A stretch of DNA of 64,000 bases from the NCBI GenBank assembly GCA_021769555.1, contig JAETSR010000007.1, positions 32,017 to 96,016 of the forward strand, read 5' to 3'. A program made the translations under genes and the position numbers. Shown one piece after another: positions 3,120 through 42,525 of this stretch. How positions within the stretch are numbered: position 1 is the stretch's first letter; the number at the start of each line of letters is the position of its first letter. The notes beneath the pieces were generated by a model. The model saw only the letters and a program-made list of their open reading frames with translations. It did no database searches and was not told the origin of the DNA. Origin of the DNA: Clostridiaceae bacterium. Lineage in GTDB: Bacteria > Bacillota > Clostridia > Oscillospirales > Acutalibacteraceae.

Positions 3120-4205
3120 ATGTCAAGAGTCTACAATTTTTCCGCCGGCCCCTCCATGCTGCCGGTGCCGGTATTGGAGAAAGCCGCCGGCGAGCTTTTG
3201 GAGTACGGTACTACGGGCCAGTCGGTGATGGAGATGTCCCACCGCTCCGCTGCCTTCGAGCCCATCATCGCCGAGGCCCAGGCCCTCATCCGGGAGGTCA
3301 TGGGCATTCCCGAGAACTACAAGGTTCTGTTTTTACAGGGCGGGGCCTCAAGCCAGTTCGCCGCCGTGCCCATGAACCTGATGGTGAAGAACCATAAGGC
3401 CGACTATGTGCTCTCCGGCCAGTTCTCCACCAAGGCCTACAAAGAAGCCTCAAGGTACGGAGACTGCAAGGCCGTGGCTTCATCTAAAGACGACAACTTC
3501 AGCCATATCCCGGCCATTGACAAGAGCGAGCTGCGCCCCGACGCGGACTACCTGCATATCTGCATGAACAACACCATCTACGGCACCCTCTGGCACCAGC
3601 TCCCCGACACTGGCTCTGTGCCCCTGGTGGCCGATATCTCCTCCTGCATACTCAGCCAGCCGATTGACATAACCAGGTTTGGTTTACTGTATGCCGGGGC
3701 CCAGAAGAACGTGGCCCCCGCCGGGCTCACCATCGTTATCGTCCGGGAAGACCTCATAGGCGAGACCCTCCCCGGCACCCCCACCATGTTCGACTATAAA
3801 GTAATGGCCGACAACGACTCCATGTACAACACTCCCCCCTGCTGGCCCATCTATATGTGCAAGCTGGTGCTTGAGTGGATAAAGGACGACATCGGCGGCC
3901 TCGAGAAGATGAAGGAGCGCAACGAGAAAAAGGCCGGGGTCCTCTACGATTTCCTGGACAATTCCAAGCTCTTCAAGCCCTGCGCCGAGAAGGACAGCCG
4001 CTCCATAATGAACGTGACCTTCGTCACCGGCGACAAGGATTTAGACGCGAAGTTCGTCAAGGAGGCTTCAGCCGCGGGCTTCGTGAACCTCAAGGGCCAC
4101 AGGAGCGTTGGCGGTATGCGCGCGTCTATTTATAACGCCATGCCTCCCGAGGGCGTGGATAAGCTGGTGGAGTTCATGAGGGAGTTTGAGAACGCAAACG
4201 GCTGA
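3120..4205 (+). CDS. serC: Phosphoserine aminotransferase
   Basis: YNFSAGPS, EMSHRS, YAGAQKN (PLP lysine), GHRSVGGMRASIYNA. Confidence 0.97.
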   Translation: MSRVYNFSAGPSMLPVPVLEKAAGELLEYGTTGQSVMEMSHRSAAFEPIIAEAQALIREVMGIPENYKVLFLQGGASSQFAAVPMNLMVKNHKADYVLSGQFSTKAYKEASRYGDCKAVASSKDDNFSHIPAIDKSELRPDADYLHICMNNTIYGTLWHQLPDTGSVPLVADISSCILSQPIDITRFGLLYAGAQKNVAPAGLTIVIVREDLIGETLPGTPTMFDYKVMADNDSMYNTPPCWPIYMCKLVLEWIKDDIGGLEKMKERNEKKAGVLYDFLDNSKLFKPCAEKDSRSIMNVTFVTGDKDLDAKFVKEASAAGFVNLKGHRSVGGMRASIYNAMPPEGVDKLVEFMREFENANG

Positions 4206-4219
4206 TTTTACGTAAAATA

Positions 4220-4248
4220 TTGACAAGAACTGGAATTTAATGTAAAAT
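4220..4248 (+). promoter_or_regulatory. Sigma-A promoter of the small toxin mRNA
   Basis: TTGACA-17bp-TAAAAT. Confidence 0.75.
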
Positions 4249-4416
4249 GAAAGCGCCTCCCGCAGGACCTACAGCAGAATAGAGGCGGGAACGGCGCTGG
4301 ACATATATAAGCCACTTAGTAGAACGTAGAAAAGGCGGACGGTAGACCGACAAGTAAGTGCTCGGCATACGCATGCTCGTGAGATGCGGAAACCACACCG
4401 AAAGGAGGTCACGCTT

Positions 4417-4506
4417 ATGAACGCGTACGAGATTATGACAGTCATGGTGATGGTACTTCACATCGTCGTAGACCTGCTGATTGCCCTCGACGCAAAAAAT
4501 AAGTAG
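4417..4506 (+). CDS. 29-aa hydrophobic peptide, putative type I toxin
   Basis: AAAGGAGGT SD; MNAYEIMTVMVMVLHIVVDLLIALDAKNK = one TM helix plus a basic tail; not in the supplied ORF track. Confidence 0.75.
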   Translation: MNAYEIMTVMVMVLHIVVDLLIALDAKNK

Positions 4507-4593
4507 CCGCTCCCCCCAGCAAGGTGTAGCGGCTACTTAGCTCTACAAACCGGCCTACCGTCCGAACCGTGGTCCGTCCAGCGCCTTTTCTTT
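4494..4593 (-). ncRNA. Putative antisense antitoxin sRNA (about 100 nt)
   Basis: Convergent promoter at 4600-4627; 11-bp hairpin 4500-4539 followed by T6 on the minus strand; overlaps the toxin 3' end. Confidence 0.65.
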
Positions 4594-4599
4594 ATCTAT

Positions 4600-4627
4600 A
4601 TTATACCACATTCTATGTTTATGTCAA
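4600..4627 (-). promoter_or_regulatory. Antisense sigma-A promoter (extended -10)
   Basis: TTGACA-16bp-TATAAT with TGn immediately before the -10. Confidence 0.7.
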
Positions 4628-4659
4628 TACCCCAACCATAATTTGAAAGGATGATTCCC

Positions 4660-5826
4660 ATGTACAAAATACTCTGCCTCAACAAAATAAGCCCCACCGG
4701 CACCAAGCGCTTCGGCGAGAGCTATACCTTCTCCCCGGAGATGAAGGACCCCGAGGGCATACTGGTGCGCTCGGCCTCCATGCACGATATGGAACTGCCC
4801 GAGAGCCTTTTAGCCATCGCCAGGGCCGGGGCCGGCACAAACAATATCCCCTCCGAGGACTGCGCCAAGAAGGGCATAGCCGTGTTCAACACCCCCGGGG
4901 CCAACGCCAACGCCGTGAAGGAGCTGGTGCTCTGCGCGCTGCTGCTCTCCTCCCGGAAGATACCCGCCGCCATGGACTGGGTGAAGACCCTCAGGGGCCA
5001 GGGGGCCGAGGTCTCAAAGCTTGTGGAAAAGGGCAAGGGCCAGTTTGCCGGGCCCGAGATACAGGGCAAGTCCCTGGGCGTGGTGGGCCTTGGTGCCATC
5101 GGCATTTTAGTTGCCAACGCCGCCCATTCCCTTGGAATGGAGGTCTACGGCTACGACCCCTTCCTGTCGGTGGACGCCGCATGGAGGCTCTCCCGCTCGG
5201 TGCACCGCTCCATGTCCTTGGATGAAATTTACCAGAGCTGCGACTATATCACCCTGCACCTGCCCGCCACCAAGGACACCAAGGGCATGATAAACGCCGA
5301 CACCATCGGTAAGATGAAGGACGGCGTGCGCCTTCTGAACTTTGCAAGAGGGGAGCTGGTGGACACTGCCGCCCTGCTCTCTGCCCTTGAGTCCGGCAAA
5401 TGCGCCGCCTACGCCACGGACTTCCCCGCCGACGAAATGCTGGGCTGCGGGAACGTGATACCCCTGCCACACCTGGGCGCCTCCACCCCCGAGAGCGAGG
5501 ACAACTGCGCCCAAATGGCCGTGGACCAGATAAAGGAGTACATCGAAAACGGCAATATCATAAACTCCGTGAACCTGCCGAACCTCAGCATGTCCCGGGA
5601 GTCCGGCACCCGCCGTATCTGCGTGATACACAAAAACGTCCCCGGGGCCATCGCCGACTTCACCGCCGTCTGCGGCAGGGCCGGTATAAACATCGAGAAC
5701 ATGCAGAGCAAATCCAGGGGCGACTACGCCTACACCGTTTTGGATGTGACCGGCGCGGACGTCTCCCCCGCCGTCCAGGAGCTCTCCTCCCTTGAAGCGA
5801 ACATCCGGGTGCGGGTGATAGACTGA
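4660..5826 (+). CDS. serA: D-3-phosphoglycerate dehydrogenase with C-terminal ACT domain
   Basis: ARAGAGTNNI, NTPGANANAV, GVVGLGAIG, PHLGAST; follows serC. Confidence 0.95.
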   Translation: MYKILCLNKISPTGTKRFGESYTFSPEMKDPEGILVRSASMHDMELPESLLAIARAGAGTNNIPSEDCAKKGIAVFNTPGANANAVKELVLCALLLSSRKIPAAMDWVKTLRGQGAEVSKLVEKGKGQFAGPEIQGKSLGVVGLGAIGILVANAAHSLGMEVYGYDPFLSVDAAWRLSRSVHRSMSLDEIYQSCDYITLHLPATKDTKGMINADTIGKMKDGVRLLNFARGELVDTAALLSALESGKCAAYATDFPADEMLGCGNVIPLPHLGASTPESEDNCAQMAVDQIKEYIENGNIINSVNLPNLSMSRESGTRRICVIHKNVPGAIADFTAVCGRAGINIENMQSKSRGDYAYTVLDVTGADVSPAVQELSSLEANIRVRVID

Positions 5827-5863
5827 CCGGCAAATCCTGGGGAGCTGTTATAGGAGTATAAAT

Positions 5864-6637
5864 ATGACAGACGGACATATACACATTGAGCGCGGCCCGT
5901 ATACCCTTGACTGGATAGAGCAATTTGTAAACAGGGCGCTTGAGACGGGGCTCGACGAAATACGCCTGCTGGAGCACAACTATATATTTGAGGAATTTGC
6001 CCCGATGTACGATTCCGTGCGCGCCTGCAGCGAGTACGTGGACGCATGGTTCCAGAGAAGCGCCTGCAGGCATACGCTCCCGGAATATTTAGAGCTCATT
6101 GAGCTTGCCAGAAGCCATCGGTTTCCCATAGAGGTCAAGTTTGGACTTGAGATATGCTATTTTAAGGAGTTTGAAGATTTTATCTCCGGGCTTGTAGAGG
6201 ACAAAGGCTTTGATTTTCTGCTGGGAAGCGTACATTTTGCCGGTAACTTTGCCTTCGACCACAAGGCCGAGCACTGGGCCGGGCTCGACGTTGACGAGAT
6301 ATACCGCCGGTATTTTGAGGACTCCGTCCTCTTGGCAGAAAGCGGGATATTCGACGGCATTGGCCACCCGGACGGGATAAAGCTGTTCGGCCACAGGCCG
6401 TCATACCCGCTGACAGGCTTCTATGAGCGTTTGGCTGCGGAGCTCTCTAAAAGCAATATGTACGCGGACCATAACAGCGGCGCGGAAAGAAGGTGCCCGG
6501 AAACAGCGTCCCTCGGCATGGACACGGAGCTGCTTGGAATTTTGAAAAAGCATAATGTGAAGATAATCACTTCCTCCGATGCCCACTGCCCCGAGGACGT
6601 GGGGTATAAAATCAGGGAACTGAATAATATGTTATAG
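5864..6637 (+). CDS. PHP-family hydrolase (HisJ-like)
   Basis: DGHIH, LGSVH, GHPD, SSDAH motifs. Confidence 0.75.
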   Translation: MTDGHIHIERGPYTLDWIEQFVNRALETGLDEIRLLEHNYIFEEFAPMYDSVRACSEYVDAWFQRSACRHTLPEYLELIELARSHRFPIEVKFGLEICYFKEFEDFISGLVEDKGFDFLLGSVHFAGNFAFDHKAEHWAGLDVDEIYRRYFEDSVLLAESGIFDGIGHPDGIKLFGHRPSYPLTGFYERLAAELSKSNMYADHNSGAERRCPETASLGMDTELLGILKKHNVKIITSSDAHCPEDVGYKIRELNNML

Positions 6638-26494: not shown

Positions 26495-27937
26495 TTAGCT
26501 CAAAAGAGCATTTACCTTATTCTGAATTGTGTCGTAGTCGTACCCTGCGGCCTGTAGGCGCTGTTTGCGCTCCTCGCCAGCGCCCCACTTACCCGCGATA
26601 ACCTCCTGGGCGAGTTCGGCTACGGTCTTCCCGTTTGTGCTGCGGGCGGCTATGTCCGCAGCGTCTACCCAGCCATAGACGTTGCTTGTCCCGTCCGTAT
26701 GTATTACATGGTATGGGTGTTTCGCGCCGCTGGCAATGGCCGTGACCTTTGCGGGGCCAGGGCGGCACTCCGGGCCGGTGACGGCGTTGGAGTTTGCATA
26801 ATGCCTGCTCCCGGTAAAGTCCCTGATATCCCCAACCTTAACCTCCCCGAAGCTGCTGGGGAGCGTCGTCTCGGGATATGAAGGAACTGCGCTGGCGGGG
26901 CCCGCCTTGCTGCTGTACTTGGGGACGCCATAGCCGCGAATGTACCGTCCGTTGACTGTTATCGTGCGCCGCCCCACACTGTTTGAATAGTTCCCCTCAA
27001 TAACAGTGATGGTCTGTCCGCTGACCTTCTCCACAATGCCAACGTGGTCTGCCGGGGCGGTGCAGTCTCCCGCGCCGCTGTCGTCCCAATTATAGAAGAT
27101 GTAGTCGCCGGGGGCCGGGGTGTAGGCGTCGTTCTCCACCCAGCTCCCCAGGTTCTTAAAGAGCTGGATATGCTTCTCGCAGCCGCACTCCGTAGGAATG
27201 ATGTCGGTAAGCCCTGCCTTTATTGCCACGGCGCTGGCGAAGGTGCTGCACCATGCGTCGGTGTAAGTGACGGCGTAGCCACGGGCCAGCGGTTTGTGGG
27301 AGTTGTACAGGTCAATAATTTTCCGGTGGGAGCCGTCGCTTTCCCTGCAGCCGAGATAGCTCTGGGCTATGCTCACAATCTTCTGCCGTAACTCCTGCTC
27401 TGTCATGGTGGTGCCTCCTTTGCTGGCGTATTTATTGTAGATGGTCTGGCCGTAGGCCGCCCGCTTGGCCTTTACGGTCTCGCTTTGGTCTGCTGGGCGC
27501 TCAAATTGGGTAAGCACCATGTCGCTGGCCGTCCGGACGGAGGTGGCCGTCTTGAGGGCCACCAGAAGGGAGGTGTGCCCCTCTGAGAGCTCCTTCCAGA
27601 GAAATCCGAGCTGCATTTCCAGGTCGCCGATGGACTTTTTCGCGGCCCGCGCGAAGTCCAAAAGGGCTTTCTTGCGGCTCCAAAATGTCCACTGTGCAAG
27701 CCCGTAACCGGCGCAGTCGTGTACGAAGTTGGTGTAGGCCCCGCTGTCTACATCTGCGGTGTAGGTGCTGTCTGTATAGCCAAGGGCCCCTTCGTAACCG
27801 TTTTCCAGATTGTCCGGGCGGAGTCCGCTCTCGAAGTAGAGGTTGTCCACAAGGCCCGCCGCGCCCGCGAGGCTCAACCCCTTTCGCAAGAGGTAGTTCA
27901 CAATGCGCTCCTCGTTCGTGTTTCCTTTCAAACTCAT
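26495..27937 (-). CDS. Endolysin: phage tail lysozyme, CHAP, SH3-like and Cpl-7 domains
   Basis: NLYFESGL/GYGLAQWT; AWCSTF, DHVGIV, IEGN; VAELAQEVIAGKWGAGEERKQRLQAAGYDY. Confidence 0.92.
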   Translation of the reverse strand: MSLKGNTNEERIVNYLLRKGLSLAGAAGLVDNLYFESGLRPDNLENGYEGALGYTDSTYTADVDSGAYTNFVHDCAGYGLAQWTFWSRKKALLDFARAAKKSIGDLEMQLGFLWKELSEGHTSLLVALKTATSVRTASDMVLTQFERPADQSETVKAKRAAYGQTIYNKYASKGGTTMTEQELRQKIVSIAQSYLGCRESDGSHRKIIDLYNSHKPLARGYAVTYTDAWCSTFASAVAIKAGLTDIIPTECGCEKHIQLFKNLGSWVENDAYTPAPGDYIFYNWDDSGAGDCTAPADHVGIVEKVSGQTITVIEGNYSNSVGRRTITVNGRYIRGYGVPKYSSKAGPASAVPSYPETTLPSSFGEVKVGDIRDFTGSRHYANSNAVTGPECRPGPAKVTAIASGAKHPYHVIHTDGTSNVYGWVDAADIAARSTNGKTVAELAQEVIAGKWGAGEERKQRLQAAGYDYDTIQNKVNALLS

Positions 27938-27949
27938 GGCCGCTCCTCC

Positions 27950-28264
27950 TTATAGGTTATTCTTTGGCCGGTCGTCTCCCTCTGCCTGCTCTACTTCCGA
28001 GGCAATCGGGTTGCCGTCAGCGTCCAGGCCATGCCGGTTCCGGCTGACTTTTTCAGACACGGTAGCGGCTGCATAGCTGATAAGGTAGCCTATGCAGGCC
28101 CCGAAGATTGCTATGGCAAGGTCGCTGTTCGTCTGCTTGTCGAGCGCTGCCAGCACATACGAGGCAATCACAGTGCCGGTGGCTATCAGCGCCGCCCAGG
28201 CGGCCAGCTTTTTCTTGAACTCATAGGGGCGCTTATGCCTCTGGTGCTTCTTCCGGCCCATCAT
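27950..28264 (-). CDS. Two-TM membrane protein of the lysis region
   Basis: Basic N-terminus, two hydrophobic segments. Confidence 0.65.
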   Translation of the reverse strand: MMGRKKHQRHKRPYEFKKKLAAWAALIATGTVIASYVLAALDKQTNSDLAIAIFGACIGYLISYAAATVSEKVSRNRHGLDADGNPIASEVEQAEGDDRPKNNL

Positions 28265-28787: not shown

Positions 28788-28825
28788 AAAAAAGCCGCAG
28801 GCCGCTCGTTTGGGCGGCCTCGGCT
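28788..28825 (-). terminator. Terminator at the end of the tail operon
   Basis: AGCCGAGGCCGCCC-AAAC-GAGCGGCCTGCGGCT followed by a T tract. Confidence 0.75.
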
Positions 28826-28960: not shown

Positions 28961-29009
28961 GCCGTCCACCTCCTTCCTGAGCAAGAATTTCAAAAGCCCC
29001 TCCCGGAGC

Positions 29010-29120
29010 CTACTCATTGTCTTCCTCTAACAGGGCCTCGACCTCTGCCCGGAGTTTGGCCGGGACATCGTCCAGCGTCTTCCTGCCCTTGCGGATAAGC
29101 TCTGCGTAGATTTTAGCCAT
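29010..29120 (-). CDS. CD1375-like small protein (tandem paralog)
   Basis: MAKIYAELIRKGRKTLDDVPAKLRAEVEALL. Confidence 0.7.
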   Translation of the reverse strand: MAKIYAELIRKGRKTLDDVPAKLRAEVEALLEEDNE

Positions 29121-29301
29121 TACTCATTACCTCCATGACCTGCTCGAATACGTCGCAGAGGGCCATCTGCGTGTCCTCGAGCTGTGTTTCCAAGGTGTTC
29201 ACCTTGGTCTGCAGCGCCTCGTTCTCTGCCTGGAGCTGGGCCCGGCTTTTCTGTTTGCTGCGCTCCTTAACAGAATCCTTTCTCTGCACATTCAGTCCCA
29301 T
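29113..29301 (-). CDS. Small coiled-coil tail-associated protein
   Basis: MGLNVQRKD...QMALCDVFEQ; TAATG overlap with the DGR target stop. Confidence 0.65.
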   Translation of the reverse strand: MGLNVQRKDSVKERSKQKSRAQLQAENEALQTKVNTLETQLEDTQMALCDVFEQVMEVMSNG

Positions 29302-31151
29302 TACTGGAATCCTCCTTGAATCGAAGTGATGTAGCCGCCCTTGCCGCTCTCGCCCCGCTCGACCGTAACACGGAAATTGAAGGCAAAACCGCTGGCGGCT
29401 GTTTCGTTCGTAAATACATGGTTTGCGCCGTTCTTGACCTCCGTAGTGCACTCCTCCCACACAGGGGTCTCGTCGTTGGCGTTGTTCGTGACCTCTACCT
29501 TGTACTCTGCGTCGGTGGGTATATCCCCCGTGACCGATAGGACGCATACCGTGATTTTGGCGTCGGCCTCCATGGGCTCGTCCAGGCTGATGGACGCCGC
29601 CGTAACCTCTTTGGTGAAGGTGATCTCATGGGCGCTGGCCTCTTTGCCGTCGCTGGCGGTGATTTTCAAGGTGTGCTGGCCGTTGGCAAGTTTCATGAAG
29701 TATTCGCCGGTAACTGCGAAGCTGTTGCTCGCCGCCGGGTCAGCCGTGAAGCTGCGCTTCAAGGCCCCGTCTATTGCCTCGGAGACCGTAATGGGGTCGC
29801 TGTCTGCGTCGCTTACCTGGTAGGAGATAGTGAAGCCTGCGCTTTTCGTTCCCAGGTCGCCGGTCGTGGTGCAGACGATAGCGGGAGGGGTGTTATTGTT
29901 GACCGTCCGGGTTTCAGAGGTGGAATAGTCGCCGTAGGCGCTGTGGCTATCGTAGGCCCGCACACGATATGCCACGCTGGCCCAGCCCTTTGTAATGCTA
30001 TCAGTAAAGCTCAGGGCAGTCCCGGAGTAAATCTGCGTCCACTCGCCCCCGTCCACCTGGCGCTCCAAGCTGTACCCGGCCAGATCGCCGTCGCTGTCCG
30101 TGGCCGCGCCCCAGGTGATTGCTAAATTGCCGCCGCCCATCACTGTATTAGGAACGGTGATACTGGTGGGCGCTCCGGGCGCGAGGTTGTTTATCACGGT
30201 TATCGCGGCGCTCGTTCGGTAAGCCGAACTCGCGCCGTCGGTGTCGTATGCTTTTACTCTGTACTGAACTGTTCCGGTGCCGAAGGGCACCGGATTGGTG
30301 GTGCTCCTGCTGCTGCCCTGGTAAATCTGGGCCCAGCTCGCGCCGCCGTCCGTGCTGCGCTCTACGATGTACCCCTCCAGGTTGCTCTCTGCGTCGCTGC
30401 TGGCGGCCCAACTGACCGTGATAGTTTCCCCACCCTGTATGCTCTCCGGGATGGTAATGCTCCCTGGCGTAGTGGGAGCCGTGTTCGTATTTACCGAGCC
30501 ATCGTCAGAGACCAAGAGTGAAGAGGGAAGTATCAAAGCGGGGCGGACGCCATAGGTGCCGGCGCAGCTGCCGTAGTCGTAATTGCCACTGGAGTTGACG
30601 CCCCAGGCGCCGCTGGCGACGCCGGTGTCCGGGGAGCGGAGCCACCAGCTGGTGGCGGAGCCGTTGTAGTTGGCTATGCGTTTATTAAGGGCGCTTTGCC
30701 CGGTGCCGTTCTCGAAGTATGAGAGCTTTGCTCCATCGGTTGGAAAATAGCTGTTGTCGCTTGTTGTGAATCCTACCTCATATCCAGACAGCAGGAAGAC
30801 CTTGCAGGATAGGCCGTTGGCCCCGGACGCCACGGCGCTGTTGGCGGTGCCGTTGACATACGGGAGCTTGACCTGCTTTACCTGGGCCTGGATGTTGGCG
30901 TCCAGCTTGTTTATCCAGGTGTTGTTGAGATAGGCGTGAATGGCTGAATTTTTGTAGTCATTCACATTTGAGCTATGCCACTGACGGGTTTCCAGCATAT
31001 CCTTGAGCAACAGCCAAACGCCGTCGCAGGAGGAATCGTAAAGGGTGCTGGGCCGCCCCTTGTGGACGATGATAAAGTCGCGGAGAACGCCGTCAACCTT
31101 GAGTTTGACGGTACTGCCGACCGCTTTCGAGTTTAGTGCTACTGCTGCCAT
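29301..31151 (-). CDS. DGR target tail protein: N-terminal variable (CLec/DUF6273-like) domain, two Fn3 repeats and Ig-like C-terminal domains
   Basis: Contains the VR at aa ~165-207 (WWLRSP...GVRPAL); two repeats with W..ASD...GY..ER..DGG..W.QIY...YRV.AYD. Confidence 0.92.
   Translation of the reverse strand: MAAVALNSKAVGSTVKLKVDGVLRDFIIVHKGRPSTLYDSSCDGVWLLLKDMLETRQWHSSNVNDYKNSAIHAYLNNTWINKLDANIQAQVKQVKLPYVNGTANSAVASGANGLSCKVFLLSGYEVGFTTSDNSYFPTDGAKLSYFENGTGQSALNKRIANYNGSATSWWLRSPDTGVASGAWGVNSSGNYDYGSCAGTYGVRPALILPSSLLVSDDGSVNTNTAPTTPGSITIPESIQGGETITVSWAASSDAESNLEGYIVERSTDGGASWAQIYQGSSRSTTNPVPFGTGTVQYRVKAYDTDGASSAYRTSAAITVINNLAPGAPTSITVPNTVMGGGNLAITWGAATDSDGDLAGYSLERQVDGGEWTQIYSGTALSFTDSITKGWASVAYRVRAYDSHSAYGDYSTSETRTVNNNTPPAIVCTTTGDLGTKSAGFTISYQVSDADSDPITVSEAIDGALKRSFTADPAASNSFAVTGEYFMKLANGQHTLKITASDGKEASAHEITFTKEVTAASISLDEPMEADAKITVCVLSVTGDIPTDAEYKVEVTNNANDETPVWEECTTEVKNGANHVFTNETAASGFAFNFRVTVERGESGKGGYITSIQGGFQ
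30532..30659 (-). repeat. DGR variable repeat (VR)
   Basis: 128-bp ungapped match to the TR; 21 mismatches at TR adenines plus one in the 3' IMH. Confidence 0.97.
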
Positions 31152-32353
31152 GTTTCTCCTTTCTGCTGGCCCTGCGGTGTAATGCGTATGGGCTGCGGGG
31201 AAAAAGAAAAGGGGCTTGGCTCTCCGGCCAGCTCCCGCTTTTTCATGATGTTCTTATACTGTTTCAGTCTACGCTTTGCCCGCACTTCCCGGGTGGAATT
31301 TATCTTTCGGTGAATCTTTACCTTTTCACCGATGATTTCTTCCACCTGGTCAGCGTATTTCCGCCGTAGGGAATGGGTGTCGCCGTGGGCTGCGTGTGCG
31401 TCCCACGAGGTGAACTTTTCAACAATCTTTTCCTTGCTTATTTTGCCCTCCGGGTAATCCCTCCTCCATTTTTTGATTCTGCCCCTTATGCGGTTGATAC
31501 TTTCCTGCCGGAGTTTCTGGACTACGCCGCCGTTCTCCGTCAGGTAGGAGTGAAAGCCGAGGAAGTCTATGCCGTTCCTCAGTGGGAAAATGGCGGTCTT
31601 GTCGTTCAGCTCCAGCTTGTACTCGGACATCAGGGCCTGCACGTCTTTCAAAAGCCTTTGCAGCTCTGCCTTGTCCGGCAGGATGACAAAGAAATCATCC
31701 ATATACCGGCCATAGCGCTTTATCTGATACTTTTCCTTGATGATATGGTCGAACTCGTCAAGGAACATCAGGGCAAAAAGCTGACTTGTCTGGTAGCCCA
31801 GGGGCAGGCCGGGGGTGGTGTCTATGTAGGTGCATAGAAGGTAATACACCTGCCAGTCAATGTCCTTGCGCTCCATGAGCCTTTGCAGTTTAGCTTTCAG
31901 AAGGTCGTGGTCTATGCTTGCGAAAAAGTGGTGTACATCACATTTCAGCACCCATCCATCCGCGCTGCCGGTTTTCCGGTAGTAGTCCACCATCTGCTGC
32001 TTGAGCCGCATAAGGCCGTCGTGCGTACCCTTACCCTTTTGGCTGGCGTAGTTGTCCCGGATAAAGCTGCTGGTGATGGCGTCGTAGATGATATTGTCCG
32101 TTACGGCGTGGAGCACTACCTTGTCCACAAAAGCCGGGGCCTGCACGAGCCGTTTCTTTGGCTCATACACATAGAAGGTCTCGAACCGGCTGGGCCGGTA
32201 CTTTTGGGTGGAGAGGATATGGGATAGCTTTTCGGTGCAGGCCAGAGCGTTGGCCTCGTATTGGGCTGTAGCGGCCTTGGCCCGCTTTCGCTTTCTGGCC
32301 TCGAGATACCCATTGTAGAGCACTTCAAATGAGCATAATTCTTCAAATGTCAT
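31139..32353 (-). CDS. DGR reverse transcriptase
   Basis: Start MTFEELC (GGAGGT SD); YVYEPKKR, KCDVHHFF, GLPLGYQTSQ, RYMDD. Confidence 0.97.
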   Translation of the reverse strand: MTFEELCSFEVLYNGYLEARKRKRAKAATAQYEANALACTEKLSHILSTQKYRPSRFETFYVYEPKKRLVQAPAFVDKVVLHAVTDNIIYDAITSSFIRDNYASQKGKGTHDGLMRLKQQMVDYYRKTGSADGWVLKCDVHHFFASIDHDLLKAKLQRLMERKDIDWQVYYLLCTYIDTTPGLPLGYQTSQLFALMFLDEFDHIIKEKYQIKRYGRYMDDFFVILPDKAELQRLLKDVQALMSEYKLELNDKTAIFPLRNGIDFLGFHSYLTENGGVVQKLRQESINRIRGRIKKWRRDYPEGKISKEKIVEKFTSWDAHAAHGDTHSLRRKYADQVEEIIGEKVKIHRKINSTREVRAKRRLKQYKNIMKKRELAGEPSPFSFSPQPIRITPQGQQKGETWQQ

Positions 32354-32583
32354 TTGACCTCCCAAATTTAAGCTCTCCGGGGGGTAGAGGAGGCTCCCGG
32401 AAAGCACCATGCCTAAACGCCGGTCTGTCCTCCTCGCAGCAGCCTGCTGCGCCCCATCTGGGGCGGCTGGCCTCGGCGTGATGTATTTATCCCCAGCCCC
32501 TCCGGGGCTGACGACAGGATATGGCTCCCTTTGATGTGACGGCGTACTGCTTTCACCCTTTTGGGTTACTCGTCTAACATTCC

Positions 32584-32711
32584 ATCAGAGCGGGGCGGAC
32601 GCCATAGGTGTTGGTGCAGTTGTTGTTGTTGTAATTGCCATTGGAGTTGACGTTCCAGGCGTTGTTGGTGTTGTTGGTGTTCGGGGAGCGGAGCCACCAG
32701 TTGGTGGCGGA
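32584..32711 (-). repeat. DGR template repeat (TR)
   Basis: AAC-rich: SATNWWLRSPNTNNTNNAWNVNSNGNYNNNNCTNTYGVRPAL; lies between avd and RT. Confidence 0.97.
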
Positions 32712-32744
32712 AATGAGCCATACCCTAATACAAGCAGTTTCCCG

Positions 32745-33344
32745 CTAGTATCCTTGTTTGGCCGCGCGGATGGCGTCGCGGCAGGCAGAAGTAGCGATTT
32801 GATACTGCCTCTTGTCTGCCGCTGTCTGCTCCTCTGCGGCGAGTTTGCGGGCCCGGCCTCCATCGTTCTTGCGCCAGGAGGCGGCCATGTACTTTACGTC
32901 GTTTACTTTCTTTGTCCAGGTTTCTACCTTCTTCATGCTGATAATGTGCTCGTCGAAACATATCTGGATGTATTCCAGCATAAGGGTGCAGCCATCCAGG
33001 ATGTCGTCTATCTTGTCGAGCCGCTGCTGGTACTCTGTGGCAAAGTGCTTGTTATTCGCGGAGTGGATGTCCCGAACGATACCCTTGGCAATCATGCGCA
33101 ACTCCTCTCCGTATAGCCTGTACTTACTGCGGGAAAAGCCCTCCTTTTTCTTTCTGTCGGTTGCGTGGATGATTTGGGAGCAGGCCGACCGTACTTCACG
33201 GATGTCGTCTAGTTCAGAAATTCGCCTGATGATTTTCTGAACATCGGTAAGGCTGACATCATCGGAAACGACCCTTGTCGCCTGATTGGTATATCGCAGG
33301 AGCTCCCTTGCCCTGTTGCCAAGCAGGAATTCTTTCTCAGCCAT
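32745..33344 (-). CDS. avd: DGR accessory variability determinant (four-helix bundle)
   Basis: Basic helical protein directly before the TR; FSRSKYRLYGEELR, ISMKKVETWTKKV. Confidence 0.8.
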   Translation of the reverse strand: MAEKEFLLGNRARELLRYTNQATRVVSDDVSLTDVQKIIRRISELDDIREVRSACSQIIHATDRKKKEGFSRSKYRLYGEELRMIAKGIVRDIHSANNKHFATEYQQRLDKIDDILDGCTLMLEYIQICFDEHIISMKKVETWTKKVNDVKYMAASWRKNDGGRARKLAAEEQTAADKRQYQIATSACRDAIRAAKQGY

Positions 33345-33597
33345 TCTTGCGTCCCCTTTCCGGGCAGTTAGGCCCATTCAAAAGGGGAGCCAGGTCTCCC
33401 GGCTCCCCCTCAAAGACGCAGCGGTCACTCTGGATGGTCAGCCGCCCATAATTCTGATTGTGGGTGACGCCGAAAAGTACCAGGTAGGTGCTGCTCCTCA
33501 AATCACACGTCCTGCATGGAGGCTCAAGCCTCTCGAAAAGGTTGCCGACGATACAGGACAGCTCATTCGGCGACCTGGAAAACTCTATGGTCTGCAT
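33337..33597 (-). CDS. Small Cys-containing hypothetical protein
   Basis: MQTIEF start overlaps the upstream stop (TAATG); its own stop overlaps the avd start. Confidence 0.65.
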   Translation of the reverse strand: MQTIEFSRSPNELSCIVGNLFERLEPPCRTCDLRSSTYLVLFGVTHNQNYGRLTIQSDRCVFEGEPGDLAPLLNGPNCPERGRKNG

Positions 33598-34328
33598 TAG
33601 AAGTCTACCCTCTTTTGCACTGTATTCCAAATGCCCTCCACCTGCAGGCCGGTAAGGGTCTCAAAGGTAACTGTGAAGGGGTTTCCGCTAACATCGGTGT
33701 TGTACATGAGCTCCAACAGCGCCAGCCGAGAATCCACGGTAGTCACCAGGTTTTGCACGTCCGGGTGGGCCGTCGGGTCGGCATTGTGCGTATCTATGAG
33801 TTTCTGGGCCTCCACAAGGAACTGCGGGAGCATGACAACAGTTGTGTACTCCTGGATGTCCTCAGCGGTCATAAACGCCTCTGGTGAATAGTCGATGATA
33901 ACGGTAGCGCCCTCCCCAATGGTAATGCTTACCGGATAGCGCCGGGTGTCAATGCCCTGGGAGTTGTAGGCGCTTACCCACTGCGGGTAATCTCCCAGAG
34001 TGCCGTAATAGAGCATGACTTCGGAGCCGTCCAAATCTTCGGCGAACACACCAAACTCTCGAATCCAAAAGCCTCGGTTGAGGCCGCCGTTGAGGTCAGA
34101 GCGGTATTCGACCGTCATGTGCACCGTGTCTCCGTTATAGGTGGGGATATCGCTTGTGCCTGCTGCCACCGGTTCAATAAGGTCTTGCAGGTTTCCGGGG
34201 AAAATATCGTCCGGGCAGACGCCGGAGCCCATCATGACCCTGGTGATTTTCATGGGCAGCTTGGCGGCCAGGATTCTTGCTATCAGTTCCCGGCCCTTTT
34301 TGGGGATTGTGCAGCCGTATTGGCTCAT
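33597..34328 (-). CDS. Tail-collar fibre / baseplate-attachment protein
   Basis: GRELIARI...ITRVMMGSG, IREFGVFA; HNADPTAHPD motif. Confidence 0.75.
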   Translation of the reverse strand: MSQYGCTIPKKGRELIARILAAKLPMKITRVMMGSGVCPDDIFPGNLQDLIEPVAAGTSDIPTYNGDTVHMTVEYRSDLNGGLNRGFWIREFGVFAEDLDGSEVMLYYGTLGDYPQWVSAYNSQGIDTRRYPVSITIGEGATVIIDYSPEAFMTAEDIQEYTTVVMLPQFLVEAQKLIDTHNADPTAHPDVQNLVTTVDSRLALLELMYNTDVSGNPFTVTFETLTGLQVEGIWNTVQKRVDF

Positions 34329-35152
34329 ACTGATTCCTCCTTGATTTCTGGTAATGCTGTTTCTGTATAGCTGGTGAATACAGCCGAGGCCCGCTCATGG
34401 GCTACGGCTGGTATGACCGTTTCAAACTCTGGCAAAGGCGGCAGGCTTGTGGTCGTAAAGGAGCTGTGAACTCCTCCCACACTAAGCATGACCGGCGCTG
34501 CGCGGAACTCGGGCTCTATCTCAGGTAGTTTGGTGACATTCATGCACTGGCCGATGTAGGGGGTGATATAAAGGGCTTTCTCAGGGATGATGGGCTCTAT
34601 TTCTGGAAGTTCTGTTATATTTACCCCCCGGCCAAAGGCGGGGGCAATATACATAGCTCCCGTGGTCTCCGGCGCGGTGATAACGTTATGCAAAAAGAGG
34701 CCCAGATGGGCCGGAATGCGGCGCAAAAGGGTCTCAATGAGGTTGTTCCTGTCGAATATCTCCCCACTTATCGTAATCATTATGGAGCTATTCTCAAAAT
34801 CGACGTCTGTTTCGCCATCCGAGTAATTCCCAATGATTGCTCGAATTTCCGGTTCCCCGATATGCCCGAGACCGCACAACCTTGCTATCACGACGCGCCT
34901 GCGCTGCTCGAGGGCAAGCTGCTCCTCATAGGTAATGCCTAAGAATTTCTCCCATGTCCTAAGCGTAGGAGGGTCTGCGGTGAGAATGAAATGGTCGAGA
35001 AATGTCTGCTCTATGTTGTCTTCCAGCGCATCCACAACCTTGCCCTGGGCTTTGAGAATTTCCACCATTTCAAATACTTCCCGGTAATACCTGGGATAGT
35101 GAGAAATGAGCTCATGGTAATTGCTCTTATAGTAGCGGTTATAAAGCCTCAT
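34325..35152 (-). CDS. YmfQ/DUF2313 (XkdU-like) baseplate protein
   Basis: PRYYREVFEM, WEKFLGI, RRRVVIARL, RRIPAHL. Confidence 0.8.
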   Translation of the reverse strand: MRLYNRYYKSNYHELISHYPRYYREVFEMVEILKAQGKVVDALEDNIEQTFLDHFILTADPPTLRTWEKFLGITYEEQLALEQRRRVVIARLCGLGHIGEPEIRAIIGNYSDGETDVDFENSSIMITISGEIFDRNNLIETLLRRIPAHLGLFLHNVITAPETTGAMYIAPAFGRGVNITELPEIEPIIPEKALYITPYIGQCMNVTKLPEIEPEFRAAPVMLSVGGVHSSFTTTSLPPLPEFETVIPAVAHERASAVFTSYTETALPEIKEESV

Positions 35153-36258
35153 GAGATAATCACCTCTCCAAGAACGGGAACATCGTCGTCTCCTGGTATT
35201 ATGTTCTTTATATCGCCGTTGAGGGTGAGGCTGCTATAATCTACCATATTTTTTAAGCTGCTAAGGATGGCTCCTACAGCAGAAATGCGAACAATGGCGT
35301 CTGCTCCGGCGTTGGAGTTGAGGACAAGCCCTTGTATATATTTCTCGATTGCCTCTGCCGCCTCCTGTTTCGCTGCTTCTTTCGTGGCCCCAGTAGCCAA
35401 CTCCGCACCGAAGGAAACCGTAATCGAGAGGGGGGTTGCCCCTACTGCGGTAAAGTGTGCGCCAATGTTTGCAACCCCGTTTCCCAGGCCGTCGCCTACG
35501 GTGTACGTTATGCCGCCTACGGTAGCCTTGAGACCCTTTCCTGCTGGGTCAATATAATTCTGCACCTCCAGCACCTTGGCTGCCCCGCAGGGCTTTCCTA
35601 CGGGGTCTATGAGTACGGCTTTGACGGTGTTTGGCCCGTTCCACAGCGGAAATATCCTTGCCTGTCCCACGCCGTCTATGCTCTCGCACCATGTTTTGTA
35701 GTGCTGTCGGTTGCCGTTTTCGGCTGGCCCTGCAATTTTCTCCTGCACACGAGTGCGGAGGCTTTCGTCGTCCTCACTGTCTGAGCCGTTTTCGTATATC
35801 TTTCCGAAGGTGGCAGAGGCAAGGCCGTTAATGTTATTGACTGGTACCGCAGGGGTTCCCTCGTACACGTCGTTTCCGCTTTCTCCTGCAATCTCTGCCT
35901 CAAAGTAGTATACGCTTGTCTCCTTATCATAACGGAGATTAAAATAATTTCCGTCGTAGTAAAAGCGTTCTCCTATTGCTGGGGTTACACCATCGAAAAC
36001 GGCGTGGTACTTTGCTCTGGTGGCCGCAAGTCGCCGCACGTTGTATTCGCTGGCCCTTGTGTCTAGCGCCTCCCCGGTCGCCGTCGCAACCGTCGTCATT
36101 TGCACAATAAGGTCAAGGTCGGTGTAGAGCTTTGCGACCTTTAGCAATACCCCGGATATGGCGTCATAAAATATACTGCCCTGCCGGGTATCTATCCCCT
36201 CTGGGGCATTGGCGATAACATCCTCCAAAAGGCGCTCGTATGTGAAGCTCTCGAACAA
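35149..36258 (-). CDS. Baseplate J/gp47 (XkdT-like)
   Basis: IDTRQGSIFYDA, ESDDESLRTR-type motif, GNRQHYKTW. Confidence 0.9.
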   Translation of the reverse strand: MFESFTYERLLEDVIANAPEGIDTRQGSIFYDAISGVLLKVAKLYTDLDLIVQMTTVATATGEALDTRASEYNVRRLAATRAKYHAVFDGVTPAIGERFYYDGNYFNLRYDKETSVYYFEAEIAGESGNDVYEGTPAVPVNNINGLASATFGKIYENGSDSEDDESLRTRVQEKIAGPAENGNRQHYKTWCESIDGVGQARIFPLWNGPNTVKAVLIDPVGKPCGAAKVLEVQNYIDPAGKGLKATVGGITYTVGDGLGNGVANIGAHFTAVGATPLSITVSFGAELATGATKEAAKQEAAEAIEKYIQGLVLNSNAGADAIVRISAVGAILSSLKNMVDYSSLTLNGDIKNIIPGDDDVPVLGEVIIS

Positions 36259-38273: not shown

Positions 38274-38942
38274 TTATGGTATCGTTAATACTTGCCCGCC
38301 GTATATCAGGTTGGGATTCCCTCCAATCACCCCTTTGTTGGCGTTGTAAATCTTCGTATATTGGCTACCGTCGCCGTAAAATTTCTTGGCAATATTCCAG
38401 AGGCAGTCTCCGGCCTTTACTGTATAAGTCTTTGGCTTTACAGTATTATCCACTCGGGGCTCCTCCTTCTTCACAGTTGCCTTTTTGGTGGGAATGTCCA
38501 CCTTTACCTGCCGTACCGTGATTTCCCTGTACTCCTTCAATGAGATGCTGTACTGGTAGGTGCCAGGGTCGCCGCCCTCCTCGGAATAGTCGAAACTCTC
38601 TATGGTGACAAAAAGGTCTATCCCGCAGGCGGTCGCTATGAAGTGAACAGGCTTTTTGCTTGCTTTCCAAGTGTTGATTCGCTCCACCAGTTCAAGAGGT
38701 TTGGTGATTTTTGCAACCTTAATGCCTGGAAATCTGGTGGCCGGAAAAAAACTGGAAAAACTAAATTGCAGGGCTGGGCGGCTCTGCAGGATAACGACCT
38801 CTCCCAGCCCTGTAATGTCCATACTGTCATTTTTGCTCCCGTTGCGCGTCTGGAAAGAGGTAGGGAGTACCGGGAGCTGTATTTTCTCCTTCTCTGCGTT
38901 GTAGGAGAGCCACATTTGGTAATTCGGGGAATTAGTAGTCAT
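38274..38942 (-). CDS. LysM protein (XkdP-like)
   Basis: YTVKAGDCLWNIAKKFYGDGSQYTKIYNAN. Confidence 0.9.
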   Translation of the reverse strand: MTTNSPNYQMWLSYNAEKEKIQLPVLPTSFQTRNGSKNDSMDITGLGEVVILQSRPALQFSFSSFFPATRFPGIKVAKITKPLELVERINTWKASKKPVHFIATACGIDLFVTIESFDYSEEGGDPGTYQYSISLKEYREITVRQVKVDIPTKKATVKKEEPRVDNTVKPKTYTVKAGDCLWNIAKKFYGDGSQYTKIYNANKGVIGGNPNLIYGGQVLTIP

Positions 38943-41900
38943 AGGCCATATCTCCCTCCTCGAAGACCTCCTCCTGGAGAATGTTCATAAACACTGACTT
39001 GGCGTTGTCCATAAGCACGTCGAGAATGGTATTCTTGTCCACGCCGGTGCTACCACCGACTTCCATACGCCCACTGCCGGAAATCTCAAGGAATATTCTC
39101 TTGATTTGCTCGCCAGCGCTCTGGCGGCTCCCGCTGTCTCCTCGGGATTCCATCAGAATGGGGGAGGGCTCTGGCCGGTCGTTTAGGGCGTGTATAAGCC
39201 TGTCGGTTTCCTCTGTGGGGAATACAGTGCTGCCCTGCTGCCCGAGAATGAGTTCCGGTCCATCATCCCCGGCTATAAAGGCGTTCGGGCTCTCTGTCGT
39301 GCCGTTTGCAAAGGCATCTACTTTTCGGATAATCAGCTCCGGCCCATCCTCGCCAGCGACAAATGCGTTTTCTGCGTTTGTGGTGCCGCTTGCATGGCCG
39401 GGAACTGTGCCGCTGGTATTTACCCTTAGATTGAGAGCCGCTTGTGTCTGTAGGGCCGCTGCAACCGCAGTAGCGACCTCCCTGGCAGCCGCAACAGCGG
39501 CCCCCTTTGAGTTGCGTATGGAGCTGACGTATGCGTTAATGGTGGCCGTAGCCGAAGCTGCTGCCTCGTCGCTCAGGTTCATACCCTCGACGGTTTCCTG
39601 CATTTCTCGCTCTATTTCGTCCATCTGGGAGGTGAAGTCTGTGACCCAATCGGCGGTAGTGGCGGCAATTTCCTGCTGCTTTGCGCTGACCTCTCCGACC
39701 GTGTTTGCGAGCTCTGCGACGGCCTCTGTGTTGCCGCTGTTGATTGCCTCTGCCATGCTGGCGGATAGTCCTGCGGCCTCCTCTGTGCCCCCCTGGGCGT
39801 ATGCCATTAGAGCCTCATAGTTTTCCTGCGTAATGCCTAAGTCGGCTGCAGACGTGCTTTTAAGCACTTCTATGTTGGCTTGATAGTTGTTCCAGTAGGC
39901 GAGCTGGCTGTCGAGCGCGGCCTGGGCGTTTGCCACGGTGGCGTTCATGTACTCCTCAGATTCCATGGACGCCTGGTCGAAAAGGCCGAACTGTCCTTCC
40001 ATACTGGCAAGCGCGGATTGGTAGACTTCATCGTAGGCAGCGCACAGCTCGTCAATCCGTTCCTTCGTACTCTCAATGGCTGCGCTTACGGCCTCCTCAT
40101 AGGTGGGGGGTACCTCTGCTGCGGCCTCCTCTGCTTCTGCGAGTTTCCCCCAATACTGCTCAATCTCTGCAATACCGGCCTCGTTCTCTGCTATGCTGGC
40201 GTTGAGCTCATCTATGGCCTCCCGGTATGACTTAATGTCCGTTTGCCAAGCTGTGGCCCACTCGCCGCTGTAGGTGCCGTCCCCGTTGTCAATGATGTTG
40301 TTTGCCTCGAGCTCGGCATTGTAGTTCGCCTGAGCCTTTGCAAGCTCCTCGGTCAGTTCTTCGCGCTTGAGCAGCGCCTCTACATACGCGTCCTGGGCCT
40401 GCTCCATGCGCTGCTGTTCTGCCTGCTGCTCGCAGGCTTGGCGCATTGCCTCTGCGAAATCCACGGCGCTCCCGGAGGTCTTTTCGAACTGGGCGGCCAG
40501 GTCGGGGTAACTCTCCGCAAGCCTTTTTGTGACTGCTTCAAGCTCCTTCTCTTGGGCTCCCGTGAGGTTTGTCTGTGTGGCAAGGTCTTCATATTTTTGG
40601 ATAAGGGAAAGCGCTCCCAACTCCTGAGTGTGAATGTCCTCTGTACCGCTGTTATACTCTGTCCAGAGCTTATCAACACTCTCACATAGCGCGTCAACCT
40701 CTGCGGTGAACTCCTCGACCGTCTGGCGGCTGGCCTCAAAAGCTGCGGACAAATCGTCCACCTGGTACTTGAGCCGGGACGCCTCCTAGGAGGTCTCTCC
40801 GTACTTTTCGCAAGCCTCCTCGTACTCTGCGTTGAGGTCTTGGAGCTCATAATACTGGTTACGGGTAACTGCGGTCATGCCTGCGGTTTCGTCCTCGGCG
40901 TCCTCCATCATTGCGATAAAGGCTGCCCCCGCTGCAACAACTGCAGTTAACCCAATAGCTACCCAGCCCACCGGGCCAAGAGCAACATTAAGAGCCACGC
41001 CAAAGGTTGTTATTGCGGGGATTGCAACGGTTGTTGCGAATGAAACTGCCGCTATTCCGGCAGATACGGTTCCTATGCCTACCCCAACTGCAACGATAGC
41101 CTTGGTGAGCGTAGGGTGCTCATTGAGAAAATCACCCACGCCATTCATGACGTTGGCAAACCCGCTGGAAACCTTGTCAAGTGATGGCTGCAAGGCCTTA
41201 GTGAAAGCAGTGCTAATATTGTTGCTGGCCTTTTGCCATTTTTCCGAAAGGCTCTCTCCCGCTTCGGCGGTTTTCGCCAGTGTTCCGTCTGCTTCCTCCA
41301 GGGTGGCGGTAAAAGTGTCAACAGATACCGTACCGCTCCCGATTGCAGAAGCAAGCTGTTGCCCTGCTCTGCTCCCGAATGTTTCCACTGCGAGCGCGGT
41401 CGCGTCGGCGGCGTTCTCCATTCCGGCTATCTCTGCTATGACTTCCTGCAAGGCAGTTCCAGCGTCCTTGCCATCTTTTGAGAATCCGGTGACGGCGGTT
41501 CGCATGGCCGTGATGGCTGTGGTGCTGTTTATGCCTGCCAGCTCAAAGTCGGCCAGCATTTGGATGGTGCTGTCAAGGGAAAGCCCCGCCTGCTGGAAAG
41601 AGGCTGCGCCCGTAATGAGCGTGTTGCTTAGGGTGTCTACCGAAGCGCCGGAAATCTGCCCAGCATAAGCGAGCCTGTCCATTACCCTCTCTACGTCTTG
41701 GCCCTCGACGCCCCACTGGTTCATGACCTTAGTGACGTTTTGTACCGAGCCGACGACGTTTGTGCCAGTGATGTCCGCGAAGTCCAAAAATTTCCCGGTT
41801 ACGTCTGTAAGGGCGTCCCCGGTCAGGCCCATGCGCGTGTTGATCTCGCCAACCGCTGCCGCAGCGTCTTGCAGTGAATCATCGTTTCCGGCATACGCTT

Positions 41901-42525
41901 CGAGCATACTACTCCCGAGGCTGTCAAGAGCTGCCCCGGTTGCTCCTGTCGCATTTACGACAACCTTTTCGGCCTCGCTGTAAGCGTCAACGAGCTCGTA
42001 GGCTGCCTCAGATATCTCTTTTATTGTGGCGGTGATTCCCGCCGCCGCAAGGGCGCTGGCTATGCTATTTACAGCGCTGGTGCCTTTGTCTCCCATTTCC
42101 TCCTGAGCCTGTCCGGTCTCCTCGCTCTGCTCTGCCATCTTGTCGAGCGCTTCCTCTGCCTCCTGGGCTGCCGTCTGCTCAGATTCAAGTGCCTCCTGCG
42201 TCTTGTAGCCCATTTCGACAAGCTCCTCGGTGGTGTAAATGGCCTCAAGCGCAGATTTGTCATAGTTCCCGATGGCGTCAGTCCAGTAGTCCGTTTGGTC
42301 GGCAGCGTCGCTGGCCGATGTGCTATATGAAGTCAGAGAGGTGGCTACCCCATCAACGGACGAGGCAGTGGCTGTCGCGCTGCTTACAATCCCGTCAAAG
42401 GCCCCGCTTGCGGTATCTCCGGCCTGTTCAAACTGCTCCACCATGGACATACCCGCTTGTGATACGTTGGCAATGGCGTCGCTCATCCTGTCCACTAAGC
42501 TGAATACTGCGGTTAGGTTTGGCAC
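38932..42525 (-). pseudogene. Tape measure protein interrupted by an in-frame TAG at 40786-40788
   Basis: ORFs 40786-42525 and 38932-40761 share one frame: ...YGETS*EASRLKYQVDDL... Confidence 0.88.

Follow-up and report, generated by a model that had tools for sequence, protein, structure and literature searches.

The DNA analysed here is a stretch of 64,000 nucleotides (nt) of contig JAETSR010000007.1 from a Clostridiaceae bacterium (assembly GCA_021769555.1), which we call the window and whose own numbering is used for all coordinates, except where another contig is named. We regard it as almost certain that its minus strand carries a complete diversity-generating retroelement (DGR), active at the level of the population and lying in the late region of a gut-type prophage, which diversifies a phage protein of the type known as tentaclins. 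In order of transcription the cassette comprises avd (the accessory gene), a template repeat (TR), the gene for a reverse transcriptase (RT) and the target gene, which contains the variable repeat (VR), with the RT stop codon overlapping the start of the target gene; this order had been proposed earlier from the letters alone (referred to below as the sequence-only reading) and is borne out. The case is carried by the parts of the cassette themselves, by a relation between TR and VR in which the differences are specific to adenines, by turnover of the VR beside an invariant TR, by a conserved structure in the RNA between TR and RT, and by the kinship of the cassette with a family of phage DGRs.

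A repeat search found one long direct repeat between positions 28000 and 35000, of 128 nt and 83% identity, with copies at 30532-30659 (VR) and 32584-32711 (TR), both on the minus strand. Compared position by position on the minus strand, the coding strand of all the genes here, the two align without gaps and differ at 22 positions, 21 of them TR adenines (19 A>G and 2 A>T), the remaining difference being a C>T change at position 124 of 128. The TR contains 38 adenines, and the probability that at least 21 of 22 differences would fall on them is 8.7e-13 (hypergeometric). At both flanks of the pair similarity is lost abruptly. The sequence-only reading had given the same coordinates, the same ungapped 128-bp alignment and the same 21 adenine differences plus one other, all of which the comparison reproduces, but had put the TR adenines at about 37, where we count 38; the re-alignment that it proposed as a check turns up a single mismatch outside the adenines. 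The TR includes 13 AAC codons and its adenines occupy codon positions 1 or 2 only, so that no A>N change can reach a stop codon, and since TR and VR are also equal in length the reading frame is kept. The first base of the VR opens codon 165 of the 616-amino acid (aa) target and its end lies inside codon 207, with 409 residues following, which agrees with the placement at about aa 165-207 and some 400 residues downstream suggested beforehand. Within it 22 codons are diversifiable, giving a theoretical repertoire of about 7e21 proteins.

The 3' end of the VR, by its sequence the initiation of mutagenic homing (IMH) site, consists of a GC-rich 14-mer (GGCGTCCGCCCCGC) at 30538-30551 followed by TTTGAT, and its counterpart at the 3' end of the TR (IMH*) of the same GC-rich element at 32590-32603 followed by TCTGAT, both on the minus strand. 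The 14-nt element and T(C/T)TGAT are therefore common to the two, with complete divergence beyond, and the last mutable adenine lies 1 nt upstream of the GC-rich element. It is here that the single non-adenine difference falls, and the same C>T difference is found in the Faecalibacterium phage FP_Brigit (MG711465 / NC_047909; Cornuault et al., 2018, PMC5883640), in a related locus from another genome (L007) and in a paralogous cassette of the same genome (on contig C9). A search of the genome for further VR copies, another check that had been proposed, gave no second VR for the window TR, the only other matches being the TR and VR of that paralogous cassette, and a 103-nt pattern made from the window TR had no match in viral contigs or metagenome contigs.

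Evidence of activity was sought in contigs from independent assemblies that encode exactly the same RT/Avd, in which the VR could be compared in 12 copies, the window included. The TR is unchanged in 8 of the 9 other assemblies with the same RT. In copy L065 it carries two adjacent changes at non-adenine positions (CT>TG, matching window 32658-32659), either a real variant or an assembly artefact. There are, by comparison, 9 distinct VRs among the 12 copies, with variation at 34 of the 38 TR adenines, whereas changes elsewhere in the VR are limited to two sporadic ones besides the IMH C>T, which is fixed in all copies; third codon positions and non-adenine sites are otherwise fixed among the alleles. 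All 22 adenine-containing codons vary at the protein level and no VR contains a stop. The substitutions at TR adenines (in the window and L062-L072) comprise 108 A>G, 33 A>T and 10 A>C, a skew towards A>G that may come from a bias of the RT or from selection for Gly, Ser, Asp and Tyr. Eight of the copies are near-identical to the window, with 14-22 mismatches falling inside the VR and 0-4 across the remaining 2.7-4.1 kb of the cassette; a ninth, L072, encodes an identical Avd and is 95.5% identical overall. Identical RT and Avd, a divergent VR and near-invariant flanks together imply homing events that postdate nearly every point mutation in 4 kb, and are strong evidence of repeated recent mutagenic homing in this phage lineage. 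The earlier description of the element as a complete DGR is thus upheld both by its intact parts and by the adenine-specific turnover of the VR beside an invariant TR in near-identical copies. It was also seen that many of the metagenome contigs with this prophage (L075-L081, L065-L067, L070 and L071) end 23-42 nt into the TR, or within or just after the VR; these breaks are likely to come from co-resident paralogous TRs, from heterogeneity of the VR in the sample, or from both.

The RT gene (31139-32353, minus strand) encodes 404 aa, with YMDD at aa 217-220 and LGYQTSQ at about aa 185-191. Taken as the longer open reading frame (ORF) 31139-32410 it matches RVT_1 (E = 2.8e-20) and phrog_1423 (E = 1.6e-120), and its best relative of solved structure is the RT of the DGR of Bordetella phage BPP-1 (bRT, 8ub7_A; E = 3.4e-28, over residues 10-316 of 328), followed by group II intron RTs at about 1e-10. 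By its sequence, then, the protein belongs to the DGR clade of RTs with its catalytic motifs intact. We consider 32353 the most likely start, rather than the first ATG at 32410 (423 aa), because the alignment with the FP_Brigit RT (64% identity) begins at M20 of the 423-aa ORF, because the exact 404-aa protein is encoded on 24 contigs elsewhere and because no contig encodes the 423-aa product exactly; nor does any encode exactly the 210-aa version of Avd that its longest ORF would give. A GGGAGG Shine-Dalgarno sequence precedes the start at 32353. The RT stop codon (31139-31141) lies inside the start region of the target gene, whose ATG is at 31149-31151, so that the two genes overlap by 13 nt.

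Directly beside the TR lies avd (32745-33344, minus strand), which encodes 199 aa of predicted isoelectric point (pI) 9.3, within the 9.5 +/- 0.7 described for Avd proteins (Wu et al., PMC5758913). It matches phrog_3206, 'Avd protein of DGR', with E = 2.8e-29, and its AlphaFold2 (AF2) model (mean predicted local distance difference test score, pLDDT, 84.9) shows a bundle of helices, an insertion of lower confidence at about aa 23-70 and a C-terminal helix of 60 residues. Foldseek matches this model to the Avd-like bundles 2rld and 2gsc, to BPP-1 Avd (4dwl; root-mean-square deviation 1.5 A over 89 columns) and to the Avd chains of the DGR ribonucleoprotein (RNP) 8ub7. A point against the assignment is that the scores with Pfam bAvd and NCBIfam DivGenRetAVD are under the curated cut-offs; the PHROG profile and the predicted fold nevertheless identify an accessory protein of Avd type beside the TR. 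The start at 33344, and with it the length of 199 aa given by the sequence-only reading, is supported by homologues and by independent gene calls in other assemblies, and the exact 199-aa protein is encoded on at least 23 contigs from other samples.

The 230-nt spacer that separates TR from RT (32354-32583, minus strand) is conserved in blocks across 16 family members. A consensus fold of the 16-sequence alignment (RNAalifold) has 31 pairs, 17 of them with compensatory changes. In a structure of 35 pairs 92.8% of the cells of the alignment are paired, against 36-48% when the partners are slid, and 21 pairs covary, against 3-7 with slid partners. No Rfam family matches the spacer, and Rfam gave nothing credible in 29000-33700. 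The BPP-1 model would lead one to expect a conserved structure at this position, as the 'Sp' part of the DGR RNA, and the spacer is presumed, by analogy, to be equivalent to that part.

The target gene (29301-31151, minus strand) encodes a tentaclin-type variable protein of 616 aa that matches phrog_10993 (E = 1.5e-206). Tentaclins have been described as proteins with an N-terminal C-lectin/DUF6273 domain, hypermutated by a DGR, followed by Ig-like domains, from one to four in number (Int J Mol Sci 2023, PMC10743442), and FP_Brigit and FP_Mushu are named as members. In the window protein a DUF6273 domain spans aa 43-210 (30522-31025, minus strand; Pfam E = 5e-38) and the AF2 model (pLDDT 89.3) shows four β-sandwich domains of Fn3/Ig-like type at about aa 220-616, in line with the Fn3/Ig domains that had been read after the VR with an AlphaFold model suggested as the check. 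Foldseek places Fn3 tandems first in the PDB and DUF6273/Fn3 phage proteins first in BFVD. The variable residues sit on predicted strands and loops, aa 181-195 forming a β-hairpin in the model. Over its full length the protein is 60.8% identical to the Hoc-like protein of FP_Brigit, and nd4, nd12 and FP_Mushu also match; the C-terminal domain, in tentaclins an Ig-like domain with a consensus of seven residues (PMC10743442), aligns with nd4 (to aa 615), nd12 (318-616), FP_Mushu (414-614) and FP_Brigit.

By analogy with the homologues described in PMC10743442, aa 1-215 would adopt a C-type-lectin-like fold. Three results do not favour this assignment, namely that a Pfam search of aa 1-215 at E <= 10 returned DUF6273 only, that a profile search of the PDB with the same residues returned no named lectin, its one informative match being an 'IgA protease' (9qa6_A, E = 9e-5), and that the Foldseek result for the full-length protein, dominated by Fn3, is uninformative on the fold of the N-terminal domain. 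In the 9qa6_A match it is the VR-bearing end of DUF6273 (W-WLRSP ... YG-RPAL; aa 160-215) that aligns, with residues 202-259; a related domain that is not diversified would accordingly have a solved structure, which could serve as a template. Display of the protein on the virion and binding of a ligand are likewise suggested by analogy.

A different view of the same protein is that it decorates the phage head (capsid) in the manner of Hoc. This is how it is annotated in PHROG and GenBank ('Hoc-like head decoration'), tandem Ig/Fn3 domains do resemble Hoc, and such a role was proposed for the FP_Brigit and FP_Mushu proteins (PMC5883640). However, the annotation is based on Ig-like repeats only, T4 Hoc has no lectin domain at its N-terminus and is anchored through a different domain (PMC10743442), and the gene lies after the tail fibre and before the lysis genes, outside the head module. 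We therefore think a head decoration protein unlikely, while giving it appreciable weight.

How the VR is recognised as a target may also depart from the BPP-1 model. In BPP-1 a GC-rich inverted repeat (hairpin/cruciform) downstream of the IMH is helpful, although not essential, for homing. A hairpin of this type is absent after the window VR, where a DNA fold of the 90 nt downstream gave z = -0.73 and no GC stem beside the IMH, and this counts against a mechanism identical to that of BPP-1. What directly follows the VR is a pyrimidine-rich coding stretch of about 24 nt (codons 208-215; 30507-30530, minus strand) with raised conservation at synonymous sites, codon identity there being 0.68-1.0 compared with about 0.53 for other conserved residues across 16 lineages that are less than 90% identical. 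Most of these lineages were retrieved via the IMH pattern, which makes the perfect conservation of codons 201-206 circular, and linkage to the IMH could inflate the values of neighbouring codons. On this sequence evidence codons 208-215 are a candidate extension of the IMH or target-recognition sequence. A bolder proposal, which we hold to be rather improbable, is that this DGR lineage of tentaclin type has a variant target recognition and RNP, in which an IMH reaching about 24 nt into unique coding DNA takes the place of the hairpin and the Avd is a long form of about 200 aa, its insertion following helix 1 and its C-terminal helix extended. If so, it would be sequence-specific recognition of the coding DNA, and not a cruciform, on which homing into an internal VR relies.

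The genome carries three DGRs. The second is a paralogous cassette of tentaclin type in another prophage region (contig C9:190240-194358, plus strand), made up of Avd (190240-190872, 210 aa), TR (190919-191046), RT (191201-192475, 424 aa) and a target of 617 aa (192505-194358) with its VR at 192994-193121. Its TR and VR (TR2 and VR2) differ at 13 adenines and by the same C>T. In the alignment of this cassette the changes that can be seen are mostly A>T, unlike the A>G-skewed VRs of the window type. Between the window cassette, which lies on contig C23 of the genome, and this paralogue the TRs (TR1 and TR2) differ at 11 of 128 positions and are identical over about 50 nt at the 3' end, and the IMH and IMH* are identical between the two cassettes. 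This raises the prospect of cross-talk, in which the complementary DNA (cDNA) of one cassette homes into the VR of the other, and the near-identity of the TRs and identity of the homing sites would favour it. The VRs now present, however, bear the non-adenine signature of their own TR, the cross pairs having 8 (TR1/VR2) and 11 (TR2/VR1) non-adenine mismatches against 1 in the cognate pairs. Each VR is thus derived from its own TR despite identical IMH/IMH* sequences, and cross-talk appears very unlikely. A genome with three DGRs, two of which are paralogous with identical IMHs, is a convenient one for testing cognate specificity and hairpin-independent homing.

The third DGR (contig C5:3868-8101, minus strand) has the canonical BPP-1 order, with a 662-aa target carrying a C-terminal VR (about 6140-6262), a 154-aa Avd-like gene (5458-5922), a TR at about 5304-5426 and a 393-aa RT (3868-5049). 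Every difference in the aligned core of its TR and VR is at a TR adenine, and baseplate-like genes lie upstream. There is, in addition, an RT-like match on contig C16 (159399-160019, plus strand), 28% identical to the window RT and with no convincing adenine-biased repeat nearby, which is probably a retroelement of a different class.

With the machinery and its paralogues described, the evidence for activity can be weighed. Two features of it speak for caution; it is evidence between samples, and not from within the window's own sample or culture, and some VRs recur between samples (the window shares its VR with L070, L063 with L069, and L067 with L071). From the recurrence of identical VRs we conclude that diversification is episodic and not continuous. 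Both features would also suit a fossil element, in which the TR/VR pair was left by past homing and the DGR is now dead in this prophage. We find this highly improbable, given that RT, Avd, TR, spacer RNA and IMH are all intact and that RT and Avd are protein-identical across many samples in which the VR, but scarcely its flanks, has diverged. That the hypervariability arose from ordinary positive selection or recombination of phage alleles instead of retrohoming, as the frequent hypervariability of phage receptor-binding patches might suggest, can practically be dismissed, since the sites that vary across the nine VRs are the 34 TR-adenine positions, the two sporadic ones and the fixed IMH C>T, with third codon positions and other sites fixed, the TR invariant and the VR specific to its cognate TR rather than that of the paralogue.

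We propose that the active DGR works as follows, the biochemical steps being those that homology with BPP-1 would predict. A minus-strand transcript would carry avd, the TR, the 230-nt structured spacer, the RT gene and the target gene. A complex of RT and Avd would bind the TR-spacer RNA and copy the TR into cDNA, misincorporating opposite template adenines, and this cDNA would replace the 128-nt VR in homing that is anchored at the 3' IMH (GGCGTCCGCCCCGC with TTTGAT) and perhaps also at the next 24 nt or so of unique coding sequence. The result would be a rewriting of 22 codons in a patch of 42 residues at the C-terminal end of the N-terminal DUF6273 domain, mostly on the predicted β-hairpin. 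The four Fn3/Ig-like domains may act as a stalk, the last of them probably as the virion anchor, and the tentaclin would be a ligand-binding protein displayed on the virion whose specificity the phage could re-draw.

On the evidence of gene content the cassette sits in the minus-strand late operon of a myovirus-like prophage, between tail-fibre and lysis genes. Upstream are genes for terminase, portal, protease, a capsid-like protein, sheath, tape measure, baseplate and tail fibre, including, on the minus strand, baseplate genes at 35149-36258 and 34325-35152 (matching phrog_521 and phrog_6) and, directly upstream of the cassette region, the tail fibre gene (33597-34328; phrog_7037, E = 1.2e-45). 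In the tape-measure region (38932-42525, minus strand) there are two adjacent ORFs of 609 and 579 aa, both matching tape-measure PHROGs; they may represent one gene that is split, a programmed frameshift or two genes. After the tail fibre come an 86-aa ORF, the DGR, three small ORFs, a terminator-like hairpin, holin-like genes and an endolysin. The 86-aa ORF (33337-33597, minus strand) overlaps the start of avd by 8 nt; every related assembly has a gene call for it, and its one match, a weak one, is to phrog_21058, of unknown function. The hairpin (28799-28820, minus strand), found in a consensus scan only, has 7 pairs, 6 of them G-C, followed by a run of T, and is the probable end of the late/DGR transcription unit as judged from its sequence. 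The endolysin gene (26495-27937, minus strand; phrog_20388, E = 9e-93) belongs to the lysis module downstream, and the left 20 kb or so of the window contain bacterial-looking genes (LacI, FtsX, DHHW).

Compared with the prototype, the BPP-1 element (mtd-avd-TR-brt), the window cassette has the same adenine-specific signature of homing, an RT of the same clade, an Avd that is a helical bundle, a 14-nt GC-rich IMH element, a structured RNA between TR and RT and the core order avd-TR-RT, which is the core of the commonest DGR architecture, B1, in which the position of the target is variable (Wu et al., PMC5758913). It differs in that the target lies downstream of the RT and not upstream, in that the VR is internal (aa 165-207 of 616), which follows from the N-terminal position of the variable domain, in the length of Avd (199 against 128 aa), in the lack of a GC-rich hairpin after the VR, and in that IMH and IMH* diverge completely 6 nt past the GC-rich element.

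These differences are met again among closer relatives. FP_Brigit has a myovirus-like genome in which baseplate and tail genes, an Avd-like gene, TR, RT, target, small ORFs and lysis genes follow one another, with the VR at the same site of the protein, the same GC-rich IMH core and, as noted above, the same C>T between IMH* and IMH. At 60.8% identity for the target, 64% for the RT and 46% for the Avd-like protein the window prophage is a different phage lineage, and the junction of RT and target is a 23-nt gap in FP_Brigit compared with the 13-nt overlap in the window. The original description of FP_Brigit reported its DGR and Hoc-like target but no Avd, found Avd homologues only in Mushu and Lagaffe, and placed the VRs at 3' ends (PMC5883640). 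A 264-aa 'hypothetical protein' of FP_Brigit (AUV56677.1, 4757-5551) is, however, 46% identical over 201 aa to the window Avd, and by sequence is a homologue of the long Avd. As annotated, the ORF of AUV56677.1 extends into the FP_Brigit TR.

Like the published tentaclins, the window target has its VR at the C-terminal end of an N-terminal DUF6273 domain, most of its variable residues on a predicted β-hairpin, four β-sandwich domains and a C-terminal domain homologous to those of nd4, nd12, FP_Mushu and FP_Brigit; the cassette has one target, where nd4 and nd12 have two. VRs close to the 5' end are rare, yet typical of tentaclins (PMC10743442). In the DGRs of the Faecalibacterium prophages Roos, Pioen, Lelie and CP11 the VR lies at the C-terminus of DUF6273, and some of these elements have two VRs (PMC11792537); there too activity was deduced from adenine-specific variation among cognate genomes, and phage Lelie gives a partial match to the window target (70% coverage, 55% identity).

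The family is large. A search with the target gave at least 8000 relatives at E <= 1e-10, and the IMH core TAYGGCRTCCGCCCCGCTYTGAT was found in 53 IMG/VR stretches, while a search for related loci based on the target gave none in viral contigs and one true relative in genome contigs (L007, 85% identical). In all 22 related loci that have the three genes, Avd, TR, RT and target follow in this order on one strand, and the Avd proteins are mostly about 195-210 aa, three shorter ORF calls being about 160-170 aa and longer values coming from upstream ATGs. An upstream mutator cassette, an internal VR and a long Avd are consequently characters of the family and not peculiarities of this locus, and the novelty that the sequence-only reading had implied for them does not hold, all three being published or family-wide.

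The design is that of the published FP_Brigit/tentaclin type, to which the locus adds an example, leaving the kinds of DGR unchanged. As a natural DGR acting on an internal patch of a long, modular virion protein it is well documented, the evidence of recent activity coming entirely from public assemblies, and it shows that an Avd which is long and scores poorly is part of this DGR family. Its closest phages infect Faecalibacterium, its closest genomic relative is a mouse-gut 'Eubacteriales' metagenome-assembled genome, and a lineage outside the cultured Faecalibacterium phages is added to those already described.

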